This document shows, piece after piece, positions 3,812 to 28,964 of a stretch of DNA of 64,000 bases. The translations under genes were made by a program, and so were the position numbers. The stretch lies in sequence record OY720021. The stretch is one strand, 5' to 3'. The notes under the pieces were generated by a model. The model did no database searches. It was not told where the DNA came from and saw only the letters and a program-made list of their open reading frames with translations. The stretch's first letter is position 1; every line of letters begins with the position of its first letter. The DNA comes from Escherichia phage vB_Eco_Solly.

Positions 3812-4065
3812 TGGAAGGTTTAATTGAAGCTATTAAATCAAACGACCTCGTAGCCGCTCGTAAATTATTTGCTGAAGCCATGGCTGCAAGAACGATTGAT
3901 TTAATTAAAGAAGAAAAAATTGCTATCGCTCGTAATTTCTTAATTGAAGGTGAAGAACCTGAAGACGAGGATGAAGATGAAGATGATGACGAAGATAGCG
4001 ATGATAAAGACGACAAAAAAGACAAAGACTCTGATGAAGATGACGAAGACGAGGATGATGAATAA
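3811..4065 (+). CDS. 67: prohead core protein gp67 with acidic Asp/Glu-rich tail
   Basis: 84 aa; start overlaps the gp20 stop; poly-acidic C-terminus; T4 order 20-67-68-21. Confidence 0.9.
3955..4062 (+). repeat. GAA/GAT/GAC codon-repeat tract encoding the poly-acidic tail of gp67
   Basis: low-complexity acidic codon run. Confidence 0.7.
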
Positions 4066-4490
4066 TGCTTCTGATCCCTGAAACTCATGAATTAGTTCTC
4101 GAGAATGTCGAAGCACTTATTCCTGAAGCACAGGGTCGCTTCGACGAATTGTCTTCTGCTTTAAATAAAGACGATATAAATACAATTGTCGAGAATATGC
4201 TTGATGATGAAACTGATTTAGCGGTTGCATTAGCTTCTATTAATGAAAATATGCCGTTAAATGAATTCATCGTTAAACATGTTTCTGCCCGTGGTGAAAT
4301 TACTCGCACTAAAGACCGCAAAACGCGTGAACGTAATGCATTTCAAACCACTGGGCTGTCTAAAGCAAAACGTAGACAAATTGCTCGTAAAGCTACCAAA
4401 ACGAAGATTGCCAATCCAGCAGGTCAATCTCGTGCTCAGCGTAAGCGTAAAAAAGCTCTTAAACGCCGTAAAGCATTAGGATTAAGCTAA
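4065..4490 (+). CDS. 68: prohead core protein gp68
   Basis: 141 aa; basic C-terminus; ATGA overlap with gp67; T4 synteny. Confidence 0.9.
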
Positions 4491-5128
4491 TGAATGAACC
4501 CCAATTACTAATTGAAACTTGGGGTCAACCTGGCGAAATTATTGATGGCGTACCAATGCTTGAATCTCATGATGGAAAAGACTTAGGTTTAAAACCGGGT
4601 TTATACATCGAAGGAATATTCATGCAAGCGGAAGTCGTCAATAGAAATAAACGTCTTTATCCAAAACGCATATTAGAAAAAGCGGTAAAAGACTATATTA
4701 ATGAGCAAGTTTTAACTAAACAAGCTCTCGGAGAATTAAATCATCCTCCACGCGCTAATGTTGACCCGATGCAAGCCGCTATCATTATAGAAGATATGTG
4801 GTGGAAAGGAAATGACGTATACGGACGAGCTCGTGTTATTGAAGGTGACCATGGTCCTGGAGATAAATTAGCAGCTAATATTCGTGCCGGATGGATTCCA
4901 GGAGTTTCTTCTCGTGGATTAGGTTCATTGACTGACACAAATAAAGGTTATCGTATCGTAAACGAAGGATTCAAATTAACTGTAGGTGTTGATGCAGTAT
5001 GGGGTCCAAGTGCTCCAGATGCATGGGTAACTCCTAAGGAAATTACCGAATCGCAGACGGCGGAAGCCGATACAAGTGCCGATGACGCCTATATGGCTCT
5101 CGCAGAGGCCATGAAAAAAGCGTTATAA
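4490..5128 (+). CDS. 21: prohead core protease gp21
   Basis: 212 aa, T4 gp21 length; synteny. Confidence 0.95.
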   Translation: MNEPQLLIETWGQPGEIIDGVPMLESHDGKDLGLKPGLYIEGIFMQAEVVNRNKRLYPKRILEKAVKDYINEQVLTKQALGELNHPPRANVDPMQAAIIIEDMWWKGNDVYGRARVIEGDHGPGDKLAANIRAGWIPGVSSRGLGSLTDTNKGYRIVNEGFKLTVGVDAVWGPSAPDAWVTPKEITESQTAEADTSADDAYMALAEAMKKAL

Positions 5129-5131
5129 ATA
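5124..5131 (+). promoter_or_regulatory. late promoter box TATAAATA overlapping gene 21 stop (gene 22/23 transcript)
   Basis: exact consensus 28 nt upstream of gene 22 ATG. Confidence 0.6.
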
Positions 5132-5158
5132 TTATTATCTAAACAACAGGACTACAAA

Positions 5159-5968
5159 ATGCTTAAAGAACAACTGATTGCCGAAGCGCAGAAAATTGAT
5201 GCTTCCGTTGCTCTTGATAGTATTTTCGAATCAGTTAATATTTCTCCGGAAGCAAAAGAAACTTTCGGCACTGTATTCGAAGCTACCGTCAAGCAGCACG
5301 CCGTTAAATTAGCTGAATCTCATATCGCTAAAATTGCTGAAAAAGCAGAAGAAGAAGTAGAAAAAAATAAAGAAGAAGCCGAAGAAAAAGCTGAGAAGAA
5401 AATCGCTGAGCAAGCTTCTAAATTCATTGACCATCTTGCGAAAGAATGGCTCGCTGAAAATAAATTAGCAGTTGATAAAGGCATCAAAGCCGAACTGTTT
5501 GAATCCATGCTTGGTGGATTAAAAGAGCTCTTTGTTGAACACAACGTTGTTGTTCCAGAAGAATCAGTTGATGTTGTAGCTGAAATGGAAGAAGAGCTGC
5601 AAGAACATAAAGAAGAATCAGCTCGTCTGTTCGAAGAACTCAATAAGCGTGACGCATATATCAATTATGTGCAGCGTGAAGTGGCATTGAGCGAAAGTAC
5701 TAAAGATCTGACTGAGTCTCAAAAAGAAAAAGTCTCTGCTCTGGTCGAAGGTATGGATTATTCAGATGCATTCTCAAGTAAATTGAGTGCAATCGTAGAA
5801 ATGGTGAAGAAATCTAATAAAGATGAAAGCACTATTACTGAGAGTATAAATACTCCTGATACTGAAGCAGCCGGACTGAATTTCGTCACTGAAGCTGTAG
5901 AAGATAAAGCTGCACAGGGTGCAGAAGATATTGTAAGTGTATATGCGAAAGTCGCATCTCGTTTCTAA
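5159..5968 (+). CDS. 22: prohead core scaffold protein gp22
   Basis: 269 aa; Glu/Lys-rich coiled-coil composition; T4 gp22 length. Confidence 0.95.
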   Translation: MLKEQLIAEAQKIDASVALDSIFESVNISPEAKETFGTVFEATVKQHAVKLAESHIAKIAEKAEEEVEKNKEEAEEKAEKKIAEQASKFIDHLAKEWLAENKLAVDKGIKAELFESMLGGLKELFVEHNVVVPEESVDVVAEMEEELQEHKEESARLFEELNKRDAYINYVQREVALSESTKDLTESQKEKVSALVEGMDYSDAFSSKLSAIVEMVKKSNKDESTITESINTPDTEAAGLNFVTEAVEDKAAQGAEDIVSVYAKVASRF

Positions 5969-5986
5969 TTTTAAAGGTTAACACAA

Positions 5987-7552
5987 ATGACTATCAAAAC
6001 TAAAGCTGAACTTTTGAACAAATGGAAGCCATTACTGGAAGGTGAAGGTTTACCGGAAATTGCTAATAGCAAACAAGCGATTATCGCTAAAATCTTTGAA
6101 AACCAGGAAAAAGATTTCCAGACAGCTCCGGAATATAAAGACGAAAAAATTGCTCAGGCATTTGGTTCTTTCTTAACAGAAGCTGAAATCGGCGGTGACC
6201 ATGGTTACAATGCTACTAACATCGCTGCAGGTCAGACTTCTGGCGCAGTAACCCAAATTGGGCCGGCAGTTATGGGTATGGTTCGTCGTGCTATTCCTAA
6301 TCTGATCGCTTTTGATATTTGTGGTGTTCAGCCTATGAACAGCCCGACCGGTCAGGTATTTGCTCTCCGTGCAGTATATGGTAAAGACCCTATCGCTGCT
6401 GGCGCTAAAGAAGCTTTCCATCCGATGTATGCTCCAGATGCGATGTTCTCTGGTCAGGGTGCTGCTAAGAAATTCCCAGCTCTGGCTGCTAGCACGCAAA
6501 CTACAGTAGGTGATATCTATACTCACTTCTTCCAGGACACTGGTACTGTGTATCTGCAAGCTTCTGCTCAAGTAACAATTAGTTCTACTGCAGATGATGC
6601 AGCTAAATTAGATGCTGAAATTAAGAAACAAATGGAAGCTGGTGTACTGGTAGAAATCGCAGAAGGTATGGCTACTTCTATCGCTGAACTTCAGGAAGGT
6701 TTCAACGGTTCTACCGATAACCCATGGAATGAAATGGGCTTCCGTATCGATAAACAAGTTATCGAAGCTAAATCTCGCCAGCTGAAAGCTGCTTACTCTA
6801 TCGAATTAGCACAAGACCTCCGCGCTGTTCACGGTATGGATGCTGATGCTGAACTGTCTGGTATTCTGGCTACCGAAATCATGCTGGAAATCAACCGTGA
6901 AGTTGTTGATTGGATTAACTACTCAGCTCAGGTTGGTAAATCTGGTATGACCCTGACTCCGGGTTCTAAAGCTGGTGTATTTGACTTCCAGGATCCGATT
7001 GATATTCGTGGTGCTCGCTGGGCGGGTGAATCCTTTAAAGCTCTGTTGTTCCAGATTGACAAAGAAGCAGTTGAAATTGCTCGTCAGACCGGTCGTGGTG
7101 AAGGTAACTTCATTATCGCTTCCCGTAACGTAGTTAACGTTCTGGCTTCAGTTGATACTGGCATTTCTTATGCTGCACAGGGTCTGGCTACCGGCTTTAA
7201 CACTGATACTACCAAGTCAGTATTTGCTGGTGTTCTGGGTGGTAAATACCGCGTATATATCGACCAGTATGCTAAACAGGATTATTTCACTGTAGGTTAT
7301 AAAGGTCCGAACGAAATGGATGCTGGTATTTACTATGCTCCATATGTAGCTCTGACTCCGCTGCGTGGTTCCGATCCGAAGAACTTCCAACCAGTAATGG
7401 GATTCAAAACTCGTTACGGTATCGGTATCAACCCATTTGCAGAATCCGCTGCTCAGGCTCCGGCTTCTCGCATTCAGAGTGGTATGCCTTCTATCCTGAA
7501 CAGCCTTGGTAAGAACGCTTACTTCCGCCGTGTATATGTTAAAGGTATCTAA
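5987..7552 (+). CDS. 23: major capsid protein gp23
   Basis: 521 aa; sequence recalled as essentially T4 gp23 (MTIKTKAELLNKWKPLLEGEG...). Confidence 0.98.
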   Translation: MTIKTKAELLNKWKPLLEGEGLPEIANSKQAIIAKIFENQEKDFQTAPEYKDEKIAQAFGSFLTEAEIGGDHGYNATNIAAGQTSGAVTQIGPAVMGMVRRAIPNLIAFDICGVQPMNSPTGQVFALRAVYGKDPIAAGAKEAFHPMYAPDAMFSGQGAAKKFPALAASTQTTVGDIYTHFFQDTGTVYLQASAQVTISSTADDAAKLDAEIKKQMEAGVLVEIAEGMATSIAELQEGFNGSTDNPWNEMGFRIDKQVIEAKSRQLKAAYSIELAQDLRAVHGMDADAELSGILATEIMLEINREVVDWINYSAQVGKSGMTLTPGSKAGVFDFQDPIDIRGARWAGESFKALLFQIDKEAVEIARQTGRGEGNFIIASRNVVNVLASVDTGISYAAQGLATGFNTDTTKSVFAGVLGGKYRVYIDQYAKQDYFTVGYKGPNEMDAGIYYAPYVALTPLRGSDPKNFQPVMGFKTRYGIGINPFAESAAQAPASRIQSGMPSILNSLGKNAYFRRVYVKGI

Positions 7553-21764: not shown

Positions 21765-22729
21765 TGTATTCTTTAGAGGAATTTAATAATCAAGCAATAA
21801 ACGCAGATTTCCAACGTAATAATATGTTTAGCTGCGTTTTTGCGACAACTCCATCAACTAAAAGCTCTTCGTTGATAAGTTCAATTAGCAACTTTTCTTA
21901 TAATAACTTGGGCCTAAATTCAGATTGGTTAGGATTGACTCAAGGTGATATTAATCAGGGAATTACCACGCTAATTACTGCTGGCACACAAAAACTGATA
22001 AGAAAATCAGGGGTTAGTAAATATCTTATTGGTGCCATGAGTCAACGTACAGTTCAAAGTTTATTAGGCTCATTTACAGTTGGTACATATTTAATTGACT
22101 TCTTTAACATGGCATATAACTCATCTGGATTGATGATATACTCTGTAAAAATGCCAGAGAATAGATTATCCTATGAAACTGACTGGAACTATAATTCTCC
22201 TAATATTCGTATAACTGGGAGAGAATTAGACCCTTTGGTTATTTCATTTAGAATGGATTCAGAAGCTTGTAACTATCGTGCAATGCAAGACTGGGTTAAC
22301 TCCGTTCAAGACCCAGTAACTGGACTGCGTGCTTTGCCACAGGATGTCGAGGCAGATATTCAGGTTAATCTTCATTCTCGTAATGGATTGCCTCATACTG
22401 CGGTGATGTTCACTGGATGCATTCCAATATCAGTGAGCGCTCCTGAGTTATCATATGATGGAGATAACCAAATAACTACATTTGACGTTACTTTTGCGTA
22501 TAGAGTGATGCAGGCTGGAGCAGTTGATAGGCAAGCTGCGCTTGAATGGCTTGAATCTGCTGCTATAAATGGTATTCAAAGCGTTCTCGGAAATAGTGGA
22601 GGTGTTACTGGACTATCTAATTCGCTTTCACGACTCAGTAGATTAGGGGGAACTGCAGGAAGCATTTCAAACATTAATACTATGACAGGAATTGTCAATT
22701 CGCAAAGTAAAATATTAGGAGCAATATAA
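21764..22729 (+). CDS. 54: baseplate tail tube initiator gp54
   Basis: 321 aa; gp19-like paralog; terminator hairpin downstream. Confidence 0.93.
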   Translation: MYSLEEFNNQAINADFQRNNMFSCVFATTPSTKSSSLISSISNFSYNNLGLNSDWLGLTQGDINQGITTLITAGTQKLIRKSGVSKYLIGAMSQRTVQSLLGSFTVGTYLIDFFNMAYNSSGLMIYSVKMPENRLSYETDWNYNSPNIRITGRELDPLVISFRMDSEACNYRAMQDWVNSVQDPVTGLRALPQDVEADIQVNLHSRNGLPHTAVMFTGCIPISVSAPELSYDGDNQITTFDVTFAYRVMQAGAVDRQAALEWLESAAINGIQSVLGNSGGVTGLSNSLSRLSRLGGTAGSISNINTMTGIVNSQSKILGAI

Positions 22730-22732
22730 CAA

Positions 22733-22752
22733 TGGGGACCTTTCGGTCCCCA
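22733..22752 (+). terminator. hairpin terminator after gene 54
   Basis: TGGGGACC-TTTC-GGTCCCCA followed by TATTTTTATTT. Confidence 0.75.
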
Positions 22753-22757
22753 TATTT

Positions 22758-23048
22758 TTATTTACGGAATGAAATAAAAGCAGCAACTGAAGCAACTAAA
22801 CTGTCTTCAATATAAACCTCAATTTTTACCGGAGCTTCTGACTCAAATTTACCTGTTACTACACCTTGGAAAATACTTTCAGTCTGTTCTGGCTTTGAAA
22901 AATTTTCAGAAGGAAAAATTCCGAACTTTTTATCTGTTCCAAAAATTTTGATAAATTCATCGTAAACTGCTTCATTAAAAGCATTATCAGCAGGAATAAC
23001 GCCTTCAACTACAAGTTCTTGACCCAAAAAGCGCAAAGAAGATTTCAT
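22758..23048 (-). CDS. hypothetical protein, 96 aa
   Basis: ORF preceded by GAGG Shine-Dalgarno and a GTTTAC-type early promoter (23080-23109). Confidence 0.6.
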   Translation of the reverse strand: MKSSLRFLGQELVVEGVIPADNAFNEAVYDEFIKIFGTDKKFGIFPSENFSKPEQTESIFQGVVTGKFESEAPVKIEVYIEDSLVASVAAFISFRK

Positions 23049-23079
23049 TTTGTGTTCCTCATGTTATGTCAGTAAGACT

Positions 23080-23109
23080 ACTATAACACAACATGAGGGA
23101 CTTGTAAAC
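23080..23109 (-). promoter_or_regulatory. early sigma70 promoter (GTTTAC -35, TATAGT -10) within a duplicated 53-bp module
   Basis: minus-strand GTTTAC...18 nt...TATAGT, then GAGG SD and ATG of the 96-aa ORF. Confidence 0.6.
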
Positions 23110-25166
23110 TACATTTTGAACTTTTTAGACATTCCGTTGATGTTAACCAAAGAAGCTAAGATTTGAGAAACTTCGTTTTCCTCTTCTTTTGATTCTTCTA
23201 CAAGGAATTGATTAAATCCAGTCATTGGACGAACTTCACCAGTTTCCATCAAATGATCGCCATCATATACTGATTCCTCTAATTGTTCAGAAGGAGGAAC
23301 GATTGTACCTTCGATTAGATACTTGTTATAAGCAGTTTCTTTCATAAAGTAAGTACTTACTTTATTAATCTTCAGTAAAATTCCACGTGGTAGAATAACT
23401 TCAGCTTCTGATGGAAATCCTGATAAATGACCTGGAACGATAACTTTGATTCGCTCAGCTCCTTTAATTACCATACCCACGCTAGTTTCAGCATCTTCAT
23501 TAGCATATGTAGAATGACTACCCATATGCATCAAATCTTCTGCATCAATGGAACCTTCTCCTTCACCAGAAAATACTGCGCCAGAATCATCTAGAGCCAT
23601 ATAGTTTTTACCATGCTCACCGAAGATATTTGGTTTAAGCGATGTGGATACGAAGTTCTTGAAATAGAACATTTTATTTTCAATGTTATGACGCAAAGTT
23701 TTAAAGGTAACTTCTTGCCCACGATAAAGAGTAGTTCCTGGAGGAAGAACTGAACCTTTAGCAAATGCAGAATCCAACGTCTCGATGTGTTTAATAGCTC
23801 GTTCCATATATTCTTCACGGGTAGAATCAGGTTTACCTAAAAGGAACGAGTTCATTTCAACATATGAATCTGCACAATAATCTTCAATTACATCAGACTC
23901 AGCCTGAGTTAATCCTTTTGGAGTTACTTCAGTGCTTGCGTATTCATATGCCTGAGCGGCAGATTCATTAATCAATTTATAAATGCCATTCATGACAAAT
24001 TGAATAATAGCTGTCTTTTCATCTGGTGTAGCTTTAGAACCTTTAACTAAATCATTGATAATTTTCTTAATAACATCAAAGCTATTAGAAATATTAATGT
24101 CAGCAAGATCGCTTAAAATTTTATCAGTTTTATAATCAAAGAATTCTTTATTCTTTAAATATTCTTGAGAACCTTGATATGTTATATCGCTCTGCAACTT
24201 GATAGATGGATCACGTAAACGTGCATGGGCTAATGCAATATGATTTCGGAAACTTTCTAGTTCATAATCGTTAGATTTAAAACGAGAAGCACTTCTCATA
24301 CCACCGATAGCTCCTTTGCTAAAGTTTGAACCAATCTGAATAACGCCAGAGTTCATCGGACCTTCTGCTTTATATACCGGAACTTTAGATTCAAACTCTT
24401 GATATTTCTTAGCAGCGAAGCTATCACCCTGAAGTGAAGCATCAACAGTAGAATATTGAGCTTGTGCTGCTAATCGACGACTAATTTTAGTTTTCTGAAT
24501 AACAGCTTGATCCGTGCGCTTATCATTTTCTAAAGCAATAGAAGCAGCAACAGCGACAGCTTTAGGAACAGCATTACCTGTTTTAACGTCTACATAAACA
24601 TCACCAACCTTTGATTCAACTTTTGTGAATAACTCAGTTGAAATAGGAGGTACACCTGGAATGTCTTCTAAATTGGCATTTTTACGGTAAACCATAATAT
24701 ATGCATATTTCTTATCATAGTCCCAGATTTCCTTTAAAAGAACATATCGACCTGCTCCTTTAGTACGTACTAAACGGTCAGCAATAACTTGCATTTGACG
24801 AGCTGCGCCATTTGTTTTACTTTTTAGTACGCGGAATAGGCATGCGTCGATTTTATACTGTTTCATTGTTTGAAGAGCAGTATCAAAAACAGCATTAATG
24901 ACGCCAATTGGATTTCCACCCAAGTTTCTAAGCTTGACTAACGATAATTTCTCATTAACACCTATCATTACGATATGCATCATTTTGTCGCCTGGCTTAA
25001 CGTTTTTATTCGTATCACCGCCAGAGGTGTATGTACAAAATCTAAATCCAGGAAGCACGCTTTCTTCACCGGCTTGAATAGCAAAAATTTGTGGTATTTT
25101 ATGCTTAGGATTTAAGTTAACAACCGGCGCCGAAGCGCCGTCAAATAATTCTGTAATAAGTTCCAT
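23109..25166 (-). CDS. Alt-like ADP-ribosyltransferase paralog (685 aa)
   Basis: N-terminus MELITELFD... shared with the neighbouring Alt; R-S-E type motifs YRGQ, STS, EAEVILPRG in C-terminal domain. Confidence 0.85.
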   Translation of the reverse strand: MELITELFDGASAPVVNLNPKHKIPQIFAIQAGEESVLPGFRFCTYTSGGDTNKNVKPGDKMMHIVMIGVNEKLSLVKLRNLGGNPIGVINAVFDTALQTMKQYKIDACLFRVLKSKTNGAARQMQVIADRLVRTKGAGRYVLLKEIWDYDKKYAYIMVYRKNANLEDIPGVPPISTELFTKVESKVGDVYVDVKTGNAVPKAVAVAASIALENDKRTDQAVIQKTKISRRLAAQAQYSTVDASLQGDSFAAKKYQEFESKVPVYKAEGPMNSGVIQIGSNFSKGAIGGMRSASRFKSNDYELESFRNHIALAHARLRDPSIKLQSDITYQGSQEYLKNKEFFDYKTDKILSDLADINISNSFDVIKKIINDLVKGSKATPDEKTAIIQFVMNGIYKLINESAAQAYEYASTEVTPKGLTQAESDVIEDYCADSYVEMNSFLLGKPDSTREEYMERAIKHIETLDSAFAKGSVLPPGTTLYRGQEVTFKTLRHNIENKMFYFKNFVSTSLKPNIFGEHGKNYMALDDSGAVFSGEGEGSIDAEDLMHMGSHSTYANEDAETSVGMVIKGAERIKVIVPGHLSGFPSEAEVILPRGILLKINKVSTYFMKETAYNKYLIEGTIVPPSEQLEESVYDGDHLMETGEVRPMTGFNQFLVEESKEEENEVSQILASLVNINGMSKKFKM

Positions 25167-25169
25167 GAT

Positions 25170-27266
25170 TTATCCTTGAACGAACTTGTAAGGCATGTTT
25201 GTAATATCTATGCAAGACGCAATAATTCCAAGAGATGATTCTACTTTCTGTTTAACGTTTGATGAAACAAATGATGCAAAGTCAACTCTGTCTTCTATTT
25301 CAATATCACCTGTCATTGCAACCAATTCACCAGTTTCCATTAAATGGTCTCCGTCATAGATTACCGATTCAGTGAGCTCTTCCGTGGTCATAACTTCAGC
25401 TTGAATGAGTTTTGTATTATTAGATGTTGTTCCGTCATTATTAGAAGCATCAGTTATTTTATTAACTTTGACCATCAATCCACGTGGTAGAATAACTTCA
25501 GCTTCTGTTGCTATTCCGAGACTTCCTGGATATACAACATTAACTTTATGAGCTCCATCAATTGCCCATCCTATTTGAACTTTAACGTATTCAGGATTTT
25601 CTTTATACGCTCTTATTTCGTTTGGATTAATAGTTATTCCTTCTTCATTTTTATCAACTGTTAATTCGTTGCGAGCTTCTGGTTCTAAAAGACCAATACC
25701 AGCGTGTGTAATTCCAAAACGTCCAAAAATGATAGGAGTTAAAGAAGTAGATACAAAATTTCTAAAATAGAACACTTTATTTTTAACTAACGCTTCATAT
25801 ATAGGAGCAGTCATACTTTGAGCACGATAAACTGTAATGCCTTCTGGTATACGGTCACCATTTTCAAAAGCTGAATCTAAGTTATTTATAGCAGATTCAA
25901 TTTCTTTTTCACTCATTACATCATATCGTTCTGGATTGTAACGACCTAAAAGAAGATTATTGATGTCAGTATATCCTGAACCGCAATATTCTCTAATGCC
26001 ACGCTTTTGTGATGGAGTATATTTAGAACCATCGCGGGCAATAGTAATATCAATCATTGGACCAGCACCAATTCCAGAAAAACTGTAAATCATTCGTTTG
26101 AGGAATTTAGTTTTTGCTGCGTTCCAGGAATTTTTAGTTATTTCTTCCCAGACTTCATCTGGTTGTCCTTTACGATTTTTATTATGATTAGCAAGCCATT
26201 TATCTTTATAATCTTCAAAGAATTGATTTACAGCTGCTGCGTATTTCTCTAAACATTTTATTGAAGTAGTTGGTTCATTTTTAATTGCATTAAAAATTAC
26301 TTCTTTAATTTTTTCTGAAACTTCACCGACTTGACTCATTGGAAAGAATTTATAATCATAGTGAAGTTCATCTGCCGTTCCTTCAGCAATAATTTTTGCT
26401 GCCTTTGTTTTAGAAGCTAATGAATTAATTCCAATTTTCATTTCTTCTGCTTCGGGAATTAAAGGTGCAGTAGCTGGTTTATTAAAATTAGCTGCTGTAG
26501 ATTCATACTTCTGGAATAATTCACTTTCAAATCTAGAAGATTCCAATGACTGACTTTGTGCAATTGCTCTACGGGAAATTTTAACTTTAACGATTACGGC
26601 TTGGTCAGAACGTTTATCATTTTCTTGTGCAATTGATGCTGCAATTGCCTCATTTTTAGTTACTTGGGCTCCAGTATCTTTATTGATATAAACATCACCG
26701 ACTTTCGATTCAACTTTAGTAAAGAGCTCGGTACTAATTTCCGGAACTCCTGGAATGTCTTCTAGTGATACATTTTTGCGATGTATAAGAATATATGCAT
26801 ACTTTTTATCGTAATCCCAGAGTTCCTTAAGAAGGACGTATCTACCACCTGAACGACTACGGATAAGTCTATCAGCAATAACTTGAATTTGTCGAGCTTG
26901 ACCGGCGGTTTTAGACTTAAGAATACGAAGCATACAAGCATCAATTTTATATTGACGCATTGTTTGCATTGCAACAGTAAAAACTGAATTGATATAATTA
27001 ATTGGGCTTGGACCAAGACCTTTTAATTTAGCAATTGAACCTTTAGCAGTTAATGTAAAAGGAACAATATGCATCATTTTATCGCCCATCTTTAAATCGC
27101 GATTAGTATCACCTCCAGATGTATAGGTACATAAACGAAAGCCTGGTTGTTCAATTGCATCATCAACATGAACTGAAAAAATTTGTGGTATTTTCTTCTT
27201 TGGATTTAAGTTTGTAATCGGAAGAGTAGTATCTTCGTCAAATAATTCTGTAATGAGTTCCATCAT
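25170..27266 (-). CDS. alt: Alt ADP-ribosyltransferase (698 aa), virion-packaged type
   Basis: R-S-E motifs YRAQ, FVSTSL, EAEVILPRG; TATAAATA late box on minus strand at 27287-27294; adjacent to ligase gene as in T4. Confidence 0.85.
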   Translation of the reverse strand: MMELITELFDEDTTLPITNLNPKKKIPQIFSVHVDDAIEQPGFRLCTYTSGGDTNRDLKMGDKMMHIVPFTLTAKGSIAKLKGLGPSPINYINSVFTVAMQTMRQYKIDACMLRILKSKTAGQARQIQVIADRLIRSRSGGRYVLLKELWDYDKKYAYILIHRKNVSLEDIPGVPEISTELFTKVESKVGDVYINKDTGAQVTKNEAIAASIAQENDKRSDQAVIVKVKISRRAIAQSQSLESSRFESELFQKYESTAANFNKPATAPLIPEAEEMKIGINSLASKTKAAKIIAEGTADELHYDYKFFPMSQVGEVSEKIKEVIFNAIKNEPTTSIKCLEKYAAAVNQFFEDYKDKWLANHNKNRKGQPDEVWEEITKNSWNAAKTKFLKRMIYSFSGIGAGPMIDITIARDGSKYTPSQKRGIREYCGSGYTDINNLLLGRYNPERYDVMSEKEIESAINNLDSAFENGDRIPEGITVYRAQSMTAPIYEALVKNKVFYFRNFVSTSLTPIIFGRFGITHAGIGLLEPEARNELTVDKNEEGITINPNEIRAYKENPEYVKVQIGWAIDGAHKVNVVYPGSLGIATEAEVILPRGLMVKVNKITDASNNDGTTSNNTKLIQAEVMTTEELTESVIYDGDHLMETGELVAMTGDIEIEDRVDFASFVSSNVKQKVESSLGIIASCIDITNMPYKFVQG

Positions 27267-27286
27267 ATCCTCTCTAGTGTTTATTC

Positions 27287-27294
27287 TATTTATA
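27287..27294 (-). promoter_or_regulatory. late promoter box TATAAATA on minus strand upstream of alt
   Basis: reverse complement TATTTATA about 20 nt upstream of alt ATG. Confidence 0.6.
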
Positions 27295-27297
27295 AAA

Positions 27298-27319
27298 TTA
27301 AAGGCCCGAAGGCCTTTAA
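27298..27319 (-). terminator. hairpin terminator downstream of the ligase operon
   Basis: TTAAAGGCC-CGAA-GGCCTTTAA perfect 9-bp stem. Confidence 0.7.
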
Positions 27320-27504
27320 TAATCTATTGGTAAGAGAGTACGATATATTTCAAACTTTGGACCTTTTTCATAGGCATCAAATGTTTCTGTGAATTTATTA
27401 TAAGCATATGCATCTATAAATTCAATCATGATTTGTGATACAGAAGTAGAAACATCTCCACCTTCTTTTTGAGCCACGACAATTGTTTCTAAGTAAGCTT
27501 TCAT
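27316..27504 (-). CDS. hypothetical protein, 62 aa
   Basis: ORF overlapping the ligase stop by 4 nt; terminator hairpin immediately downstream. Confidence 0.55.
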   Translation of the reverse strand: MKAYLETIVVAQKEGGDVSTSVSQIMIEFIDAYAYNKFTETFDAYEKGPKFEIYRTLLPIDY

Positions 27505-28964
27505 AAACCAGTTACCTCATGAAAATCGCCAAATACATCTTCGAACGTATTAGCTTTAGTTTTATCTTCACGTAAACGAATCGCAATCGGAAGAAATAAT
27601 TTAACGTAATCAGTGCGGCCATCAGATTTTAACCAACCGTTGCATTCGCACTCTAGAATTTTTCCAATATAATAATTTTGGTTTTCCATAATGCGAGTGC
27701 GGTCAAGTTCATGTGATTTTACGCCGGCTTTATCTTTTAAGCCTGAACCGGCATTTACCTTAATTTTTCCACACTCTGACTCAAGAATAAATCCACCTGC
27801 TTTAGTAGGGTCTTTACGGTGAGGATAAATTCCTACAATTTTTAAATCAACATCAATTACTTCTTTAAATTTATAGAGATTTTTTGAACGAGCATTTTCC
27901 CATAATCCATCGATATTTTTGAGAATAATACCTTCAAGACCTTGGTCAATATACTTTTTATAAATTACCTTAGCTTCATCTAGGTTATTTACTACTTGGT
28001 TTTCAATTAAAATTACTTTATCATATCCTGATGTCATTTGTTCTAATTTAGAAAAACGTACATCATATTTTAAACGAAATGCTGGAAGACCGTATATTTC
28101 TACCAACGGAACATAATCCCAGACCTGAAACTTCATGCATTGTGCTTCTTTTTCAGAAATGGTTCCCTTTAAAGATTTATTGGCGATTCCATTAGAAGCA
28201 GTACGTGATTCAGCTACTTCGGCGAATTCTTTAGCTTTACTAATTTCAGGATAAGCATCAAAAAGAAAATCTAGGCCTTCTGGCTCCTTTTTAACTTGCT
28301 CATGGTATACCAATTCGCCATCAATTAACACACCTTCTGGATGAATCTGGCGGGCTTCAGCAGTCATTTTGATTAACTCTTCCTTAAGAAGATCTAATCC
28401 TAGATATTCATTACCAGCTCGTGATAAAAGACGAACATCATCTAATTCATCACCTCTGACTTCAGCAAAGCACCGAGCTCCATCAGCTTTTAATTGGGCA
28501 AAGGCTGGAAATTTGATATTCTTATTAATGCCTTTTTCATCATAAGAACTTGCCAGCATTTGAGGTTGTTCAGGAATTAAACCTGGCCAAACTTTGTTTG
28601 CAATAGATACTGATGCACCACATTCAAGGTCTCGCATCATCACCCGACGCAAAACTTCAACGTCATCTTTTTTACCGTCAGCAATATATCCAGTTAATTC
28701 CTCAATTGCCGCATTTCCGGTCAATTTCCGAGTAGCTAACGTGAATTCAATGAAGTCAAGCATATCGGTAAGAGTCAACATTCCAAAACTCTGGGTAGCA
28801 ATACCAGGTTTAGGCCATTTCTTGATATAATACTGTAACCCACGAGAATAAGTCAGACGATATACTCGTTTAAGCAATTCATTATCTTTATTCTTTTCAA
28901 GAATTGCTTGCTTCTGCTTAGTTGAACCAATAGATGCTATTTCGTTTAGAATTTTAAGAATCAT
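27501..28964 (-). CDS. 30: ATP-dependent DNA ligase
   Basis: 487 aa; adenylation motif KADGAR; T4 ligase length. Confidence 0.97.
   Translation of the reverse strand: MILKILNEIASIGSTKQKQAILEKNKDNELLKRVYRLTYSRGLQYYIKKWPKPGIATQSFGMLTLTDMLDFIEFTLATRKLTGNAAIEELTGYIADGKKDDVEVLRRVMMRDLECGASVSIANKVWPGLIPEQPQMLASSYDEKGINKNIKFPAFAQLKADGARCFAEVRGDELDDVRLLSRAGNEYLGLDLLKEELIKMTAEARQIHPEGVLIDGELVYHEQVKKEPEGLDFLFDAYPEISKAKEFAEVAESRTASNGIANKSLKGTISEKEAQCMKFQVWDYVPLVEIYGLPAFRLKYDVRFSKLEQMTSGYDKVILIENQVVNNLDEAKVIYKKYIDQGLEGIILKNIDGLWENARSKNLYKFKEVIDVDLKIVGIYPHRKDPTKAGGFILESECGKIKVNAGSGLKDKAGVKSHELDRTRIMENQNYYIGKILECECNGWLKSDGRTDYVKLFLPIAIRLREDKTKANTFEDVFGDFHEVTGL

Follow-up and report, generated by a model that had tools for sequence, protein, structure and literature searches.

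Tandem Alt-family ADP-ribosyltransferase genes in Escherichia phage vB_Eco_Solly, and a deletion remnant of the second gene in T4

We analysed a 64,000-nucleotide stretch of Escherichia phage vB_Eco_Solly (sequence record OY720021; the whole stretch is referred to as the window), in which two adjacent genes on the minus strand encode relatives of Alt, the textbook example of an enzyme that a phage delivers together with its DNA to rewire the host before phage genes are read. The sequence evidence supports the view that this locus holds two functional Alt-family genes for arginine-type mono-ADP-ribosyltransferases (ARTs). The upstream gene (25170..27263, minus strand, 697 aa) is the alt ortholog, whilst the downstream gene (23109..25166, minus strand, 685 aa) is a full-length gene of the 'alt.-2' type. 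Nearly all work on Alt has been done on T4, in which, as set out below, the second gene is no longer intact.

On balance, we favour a reading in which one late transcript yields two Alt enzymes that become part of the head, are trimmed by gp21 and enter the host by injection, and whose arginine targets are at least partly different. Both genes would be transcribed late, as a single message, from the TATAAATA box at 27287-27294. Both proteins would then enter the prohead core, where gp21 would trim them after ITE-6 and after the Glu of an L-x-E site near residue 631/632, leaving mature forms of ~69-70 kDa. These would be injected with the DNA and would ADP-ribosylate arginines of host proteins ahead of all phage gene expression, with substrate sets that probably differ at least in part.

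Two Alt-family genes at one locus

The segment carrying the locus (22700-27600, 4.9 kb) is of Tequatrovirus (T4-like) type. In a nucleotide search it matched at least 543 phage records, of which at least 366 span 80% or more of it, and the top match among those listed was Citrobacter phage PhiZZ23 (99.0%). Record counts throughout are lower bounds referring to the matches listed, and locus-by-locus comparisons cover nine sampled loci. A preliminary description of this DNA, made from the letters alone, had reported open reading frames (ORFs) of 698 aa (25170..27266, minus strand) and 685 aa (23109..25166, minus strand), and both were recovered at these coordinates. The upstream gene most likely starts at the second ATG, at 27263, because a GAGG Shine-Dalgarno sequence lies 5 nt before it and T4 Alt begins with MELITE; its product would therefore be 697 aa rather than the 698 aa counted from 27266. 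The proposed paralogy of the two ORFs was confirmed by pairwise alignment, which gave 41% identity along the whole of the two proteins (E 2e-159), far beyond chance. Both open with MELITE|L, in line with the common N-terminus noted earlier. A further shared block (QVIADRL...WDYDKKYAY) is indeed present; however, it is not central as had been described, but lies at residues ~126-157, within the N-terminal domain.

Both proteins belong to phrog_802 ('Alt-like RNA polymerase ADP-ribosyltransferase'), and a Pfam scan matched both to PF03496, ADPrib_exo_Tox (9.8e-38 for the upstream and 5.2e-20 for the downstream protein). Precomputed matches to PF26846 (Tevenvirinae_ADPRT) exist on close homologs of the downstream protein that are up to 99% identical to it. 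The catalytic residues are R480, S505-T-S507 and E587-x-E589 in the upstream protein and R482, S507-T-S509 and E587-x-E589 in the downstream protein, and the motifs YRAQ/YRGQ, STS and EAEVILPRG are found in both copies, as had been claimed. The arginine, the two serines of S-T-S and the two glutamates of E-x-E are invariant across 28 aligned homologs, and careful alignment revealed no lost catalytic residue in either copy. Moreover, the E-x-E of the Alt proteins aligns with that of CdtA. The distance from S-T-S to E-x-E is ~78-80 residues in the Alt proteins and ~36-38 residues in the C3 and Ia structures.

AlphaFold models of the two proteins, which are of moderate confidence (pLDDT 74.8 and 76.2), are alike. 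In each, an N-terminal alpha/beta domain (residues ~12-227) is followed by a helical domain (~240-470), then by an ART domain (~475-625) and a C-terminal tail. Low confidence (pLDDT <50) is confined in the tail to its last ~45-57 residues, beginning at ~629 in the downstream protein and at ~652 in the upstream one. Structure comparison matched both models to the C3, VIP2 and Vis ARTs. As modelled, both proteins appear to share the four-part build of Alt, namely a Tevenvirinae_ADPRT domain, a helical domain, a C3/VIP2-like ART domain and a disordered tail. In the downstream protein the ART domain (aa ~471-625, encoded at 23292..23756 on the minus strand) includes a segment of ~78 aa between S-T-S and E-x-E. 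No solved Alt structure was found in the PDB, where the best sequence matches were CdtA and iota Ia (E ~4e-4). In T4 Alt the substitution E577A abolishes activity (PMC11404850). By our count of NP_049811 the E-x-E is E574/E576 and residue 577 is a valine, so the numbering in that paper appears offset by one.

An exhaustive HMMER search with the N-terminal domain (~230 aa) recovered 69 of 1.84 billion cluster representatives, always with the domain in N-terminal position. A resemblance of this domain to GNAT acetyltransferases is tentative. Nine members were scanned with Pfam; five passed the ART threshold and a sixth gave a sub-threshold match. The idea that the domain is a general packaging module on other effectors was rejected, given that there are only 69 representatives and that most of the nine scanned carry an ART match. 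Two distant homologs (485 aa and 541 aa; 23-27% identity) contained no Pfam match in the remainder of the protein, and in these the domain may be fused to something other than a recognisable ART.

Conservation of the downstream gene and its remnant in T4

The central and catalytic region of the downstream gene is present at 95% identity or more in at least 401 records. In five genomes its dN/dS is 0.04-0.06 at dS of 0.10-0.25, with no indels in its 685 codons; values are 0.02-0.08 for its catalytic part and 0.03-0.08 for the upstream gene. Both genes are clearly under strong purifying selection, and the downstream gene is maintained and functional. Taken together with the membership of phrog_802, the PF03496 and PF26846 matches and the C3/VIP2/Vis fold matches, this bears out the earlier assignment of both ORFs to the Alt type with an intact R-S-ExE signature. 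It could be argued that the downstream gene is instead a decaying duplicate heading towards a pseudogene, as happened in T4, since the truncated form is found in T4 and 90 other records and AV120 retains a remnant only. We regard this as very improbable, given an intact reading frame held under such constraint at dS of up to 0.25, catalytic residues that are all invariant, and the number of records in which the gene is kept. The low dN/dS and the invariant catalytic residues contradict a pseudogene reading of the second copy.

Whether the second copy is characterised in T4 had been left as a question, and the answer is that it is not, because it is not intact there. In T4, alt is followed by two small ORFs, alt.-1 (61 aa, NP_049810) and alt.-2 (67 aa, NP_049809), which match residues 1-56 and 62-116 of the downstream protein, respectively, at 95-96% identity. 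Alignment of T4 to the window DNA revealed a 1-bp deletion in an A-run and a second deletion of 1,699 bp. The two T4 high-scoring segment pairs overlap on a 9-mer, the direct repeat CTAAAAAGT, one copy of which marks the left end of the 1,699-bp deletion (24819..24827, minus strand) and the other its right end (23120..23128, minus strand). By this comparison, alt.-1 and alt.-2 are the stump of a once complete paralog, and the two-gene state is ancestral. The note in the T4 record ('duplication of the first part of gene alt') is therefore misleading. Among the matches listed, 91 of 485 phage records share the T4-type deletion junction.

Signals for packaging and late expression

Mass spectrometry of T4 heads has shown that gp21 cuts Alt at two places, after ITE-6, which removes six residues, and after LTE-619, which removes 63 C-terminal residues (PMC5694885; PMC9026906). 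T4 Alt then enters the host with the DNA (PMC2988021). At the sequence level, sites of the gp21 type are found at both ends of both window proteins, at ITE-6 and LTE-632 in the upstream protein and at ITE-6 and LEE-631 in the downstream protein. Neither E6 nor the C-terminal P1 Glu (E631/E632) varies among the 28 homologs, and the predicted mature masses are 70.1 kDa (upstream) and 69.2 kDa (downstream). The best conserved motif of the C-terminus is S-V-x-YDGDHLMETGE, in which Y, D, G, D, E, G and E are invariant in the 28 homologs. Its YDGDHLMETGE part lies past the gp21 Glu, in the propeptide that is removed from mature T4 Alt (tails at 23112-23275 and 25173-25370). That the best-kept C-terminal motif should lie in the part removed suggests a conserved job for the propeptide, be it prohead targeting, tethering, or autoinhibition and the control of activity. 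The tail motif itself contains another L-x-E site (HLME|T).

An alternative is that the downstream protein is an active ART but not a virion protein, with a late cytoplasmic role or a mainly structural one as a core component. A T4 head holds ~40 copies of Alt (PMC9026906), and space or stoichiometry could favour a single species. However, the downstream protein keeps ITE-6 together with the whole N-terminal domain (68% identical to that of Alt), and it also keeps the C-terminal cleavage Glu and the YDGDHLMETGE propeptide motif. These features only make sense for a protein processed in the prohead, and we consider this alternative rather improbable.

With regard to expression, the TATAAATA box reported in the preliminary description was found at 27287..27294 on the minus strand, where by sequence match it is a candidate late promoter, 31 nt ahead of the first ATG and 24 nt ahead of the preferred ATG at 27263. 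A box of this type lies 31-36 nt before the MELITE ATG in 9/9 related loci compared, T4 among them, and T4 alt has been shown experimentally to be a late gene (PMC9697503). The reported 3-bp gap between the genes was also recovered, the stop codon TAA occupying 25170-25172 and the next ATG starting at 25166. No terminator-like site was found between the two alt genes on the coding strand. Moreover, the AAGGA Shine-Dalgarno sequence of the downstream gene sits within the last codons of the upstream gene. Since there is no intervening terminator, the gap is only 3 bp and the ribosome site of the second gene is embedded in the end of the first, a single late transcript running through both genes from the box at 27287-27294 is well supported by sequence.

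A second TATAAATA lies inside the upstream gene (25883..25890, minus strand), ~720 nt before the downstream ATG. It is present in the window, RB14, EH2 and AV120 and absent from JE01, U115 and T4. As a late promoter of the downstream gene's own it was therefore rejected, and its occurrence is probably incidental.

Divergence, evidence for cassette exchange and hybrid genes

The similarity between the two window proteins is unevenly distributed. Identity is 68% in the N-terminal domain, 19% in the helical domain (0-22% in windows over aa ~240-420), 36% in the ART domain and 47% in the C-terminal tail, and over the ~78-80 residues that separate S-T-S from E-x-E the paralogs show essentially no relation. 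The earlier statement that the proteins diverge in their C-terminal catalytic domains is therefore only partly right. The catalytic domains do differ, but the least conserved parts are the helical middle domain and the insert between STS and ExE, whereas the catalytic core is less divergent and the tail is conserved again.

Comparison to T4 Alt revealed a similar mosaic. Overall identity to T4 Alt is 71% for the upstream and 41% for the downstream protein; the corresponding values are 100% and 68% for the N-terminal domain, and 63% and 37% for the ART domain. A closer inspection of the upstream protein showed ~100% identity to T4 Alt over the first 240 aa and ~90% over the last 100 aa, with the central 380 aa ranging from 14 to 68% in windows of 40 aa. 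At the nucleotide level, the variable cassette of the upstream gene (25404..26543, minus strand; 1.14 kb, aa ~241-620, the helical domain and ART core) is 25-82% identical to T4 alt, and the arms around it are mostly 95-100% identical, with one window at 90% and one at 87%. On these comparisons the upstream gene is the positional ortholog of T4 alt with a different central and catalytic cassette.

The ART segment of the upstream protein is 97% identical to copy 2 of Dhakavirus vB_EcoM-E33, whereas the N-terminal domains of the two proteins are only 46% identical. This discrepancy indicates that a catalytic cassette has probably been exchanged recently between genera. In a neighbour-joining tree of ART domains, the window upstream protein groups with T4 Alt and E33 copy 2, the window downstream protein groups with E33 copy 3 (together with JS10), and E33 copy 1 stands apart. 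Because the tree pairs each window copy with an E33 copy, the duplication predates the split of the Tequatrovirus and Dhakavirus genera.

Among sequenced phages, all four combinations (4/4) of a T4-type or window-type upstream cassette with a full or truncated downstream gene are found. Moreover, two long metagenomic contigs (Logan SRR24155011 and ENA ERZ27282683) have just one alt gene, a hybrid, in the interval from alt.1 to alt.-3, at positions 4001-6055 and 4001-6061 of the respective locus pieces. The 5′ part of each hybrid is of the upstream type and the remainder of the downstream type, with sharp crossovers at ~nt 540 and ~nt 150. Two further hybrid proteins switch elsewhere, at ~aa 108 and ~aa 222. 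The hybrids look like the expected product of unequal recombination between tandem copies. It is less probable that they are assembly chimeras, since the paralogs are only ~70% identical at the nucleotide level in this region and the two contigs come from independent sources. Since the hybrid is the only alt gene between alt.1 and alt.-3, these contigs are evidence that a phage can do with a downstream-type enzyme as its sole Alt. The existence of natural genes joining an Alt N-terminus to a downstream-type body, as the only alt gene of their phage, also argues against a non-virion role for the downstream protein.

Substrate specificity

A known site of T4 Alt is Arg265 on one RNA polymerase alpha subunit. 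In the ARTT loop of iota/CDTa-type enzymes, the substrate is contacted by an aromatic residue that lies three positions ahead of the first Glu. The residue at this position is F in the downstream protein, I in the upstream protein, P in T4 Alt and Tyr in the aligned CdtA. By analogy with these toxins, the 36% identity of the ART domains, the unrelated segment between STS and ExE and the exchange of this loop residue (F/I/P) suggest that the two window enzymes probably differ, at least in part, in substrate specificity. Two suggestions of the preliminary description, that both products may be packaged and that they may have different host targets, are thus strengthened, since both gp21 sites are kept in both copies and the residues of the loop before ExE diverge.

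An alternative is that both enzymes are packaged and injected but are redundant, acting on the same main target (Arg265 of RNA polymerase alpha), so that the duplication adds dose or robustness. The arginine-type ExE signature and the overall build are kept in both copies, T4 manages on one copy, and overlap between ARTs has a precedent in that T4 Alt and ModA both modify Arg265 (PMC2988021). However, the two lineages are old and distinct, with ART domains only 36% identical and a Dhakavirus ortholog for each clade in the same gene order, and one would expect redundant copies to become homogenised or to disappear, not to be held at dN/dS ~0.05. On this evidence we think redundancy unlikely.

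Several points also weigh against the reading we favour, of two injected enzymes with partly different targets. First, T4 and the 90 other records with the deletion junction have no intact second gene, so the second gene is dispensable, at least under some conditions. Secondly, the argument for specificity is drawn from an analogy of the ARTT loop to C3/iota toxins and from models with pLDDT of 75-76. Thirdly, T4 Alt is itself promiscuous (PMC2988021), and the substrate sets of the two enzymes may therefore overlap heavily. Lastly, no proteomics or enzymology of the downstream protein was found in the searchable literature, which covers few subscription journals.

A more specific form of the favoured reading is put forward tentatively, as a possibility that we would not yet back over its negation. 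The downstream enzyme may be a second head-packaged, injected ART whose main target is not Arg265 of RNA polymerase alpha (a component of defence, toxin-antitoxin or translation systems is possible) and which T4 has lost, with the alt locus acting as a cassette array. If this is true, the three ARTs of the T4 textbook account fall short of the arsenal that most natural Tequatroviruses carry. The alt locus would then consist of fixed modules, for N-terminal packaging and for the C-terminal propeptide, around exchangeable helical and ART modules, which would pass from one genus to another and be reshuffled by unequal recombination.

Neighbouring features of the alt unit

Upstream of the two genes lies alt.1, which Pfam describes as 'Phage blade protein'. 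It is followed by a hairpin terminator (27297..27320, minus strand) with a 10-bp stem, a UUCG loop and a U-rich tail (-13.5 kcal/mol, z -3.2), which directly abuts the late-promoter box. A terminator upstream of alt is kept in 5/6 T4-like genomes (Nolan 2006, PMC1524935).

The last gene of the unit is alt.-3 (22758..23048, minus strand; 96 aa, DUF5498, PF17602 1.4e-64), which ends the alt array in every locus examined. Mutants of T4 Alt.-3 with C-terminal extensions escape the CmdTAC defence (Nature 2024, PMC11618068). The gap between the downstream gene and alt.-3 contains a strong hairpin (23054..23101, minus strand; -23.4 kcal/mol, z -4.2), which pairs an upstream CCUC with the GAGG Shine-Dalgarno sequence of alt.-3. 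Inside this hairpin lies the -10 element of an early-type promoter, GTTTACA-17-TGtTATAGT (23108..23080, minus strand). Early transcripts would therefore drop the 5′ arm of the hairpin and leave the ribosome site of alt.-3 open, whereas late read-through would mask it. The arrangement resembles that of T4 genes e and soc, which use such hairpin masking of the ribosome site. One position of the 5′ arm is A in the window but G in T4, and from the sequences the T4 base would form a G-U pair. The unit ends at a bidirectional terminator (22732..22753), which separates alt.-3 from the convergent gene 54.

Comparison with known systems

The tandem arrangement is already known at the level of annotation in hundreds of genomes. 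RefSeq names both genes 'Alt-like RNA polymerase ADP-ribosyltransferase', and alt duplications were noted by Nolan 2006 (PMC1524935), a full-length one in 44RR (ORF187c) among them. Beyond genome annotation and that paper, no functional study of a second Alt was found, although this absence is not proof as subscription journals were mostly outside the search. The exact T4 alt.-1/alt.-2 deletion, the inter-genus identity of the cassette and the natural hybrids were not found described in searchable papers, and these three points appear to be undescribed so far. The locus is not a new kind of system, and its value lies in a predicted injected effector that is missing from the T4 model. T4 keeps no more than a deletion remnant of the second Alt gene, and its alt has a catalytic cassette different from that of the window, whilst some 400 sequenced relatives (at least 401 records) carry an intact and strongly constrained second enzyme and some natural phages appear to carry the downstream-type enzyme only.

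Among the closest known systems is T4 Alt itself (gpAlt, NP_049811, 682 aa), which is encoded at the same locus, between alt.1/gene 30 and alt.-3/gene 54. Its late promoter, four-part build, R / S-T-S / E-x-E residues and gp21 sites are all matched in the window. The downstream gene corresponds to RB14 alt.-2 (685 aa), which is the same gene, and a full-length 'alt.-2' is also found in RB51. Dhakavirus E33 carries three tandem Alt paralogs at the same locus and in the same orientation, with the A-type and B-type clades in the same order as in the window. It differs in having an extra, shorter paralog (631 aa) in front, and its N-terminal domains are 42-46% identical to those of the window proteins. 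T4 ModA and ModB are small (~200 aa) early ARTs without an N-terminal packaging domain or propeptides, and the window proteins are set apart from them by their length (~690 aa), their Alt N-terminal and helical domains and their late promoter. Lastly, the bacterial toxins of the PF03496 family (C3, Vis and VIP2 / iota Ia / CDTa) have the fold and the R-S-E signature in common with the Alt proteins. However, the C3/VIP2/iota-type toxins lack the Tevenvirinae N-terminal domain, the helical domain and the gp21 propeptides, all of which the Alt proteins have.

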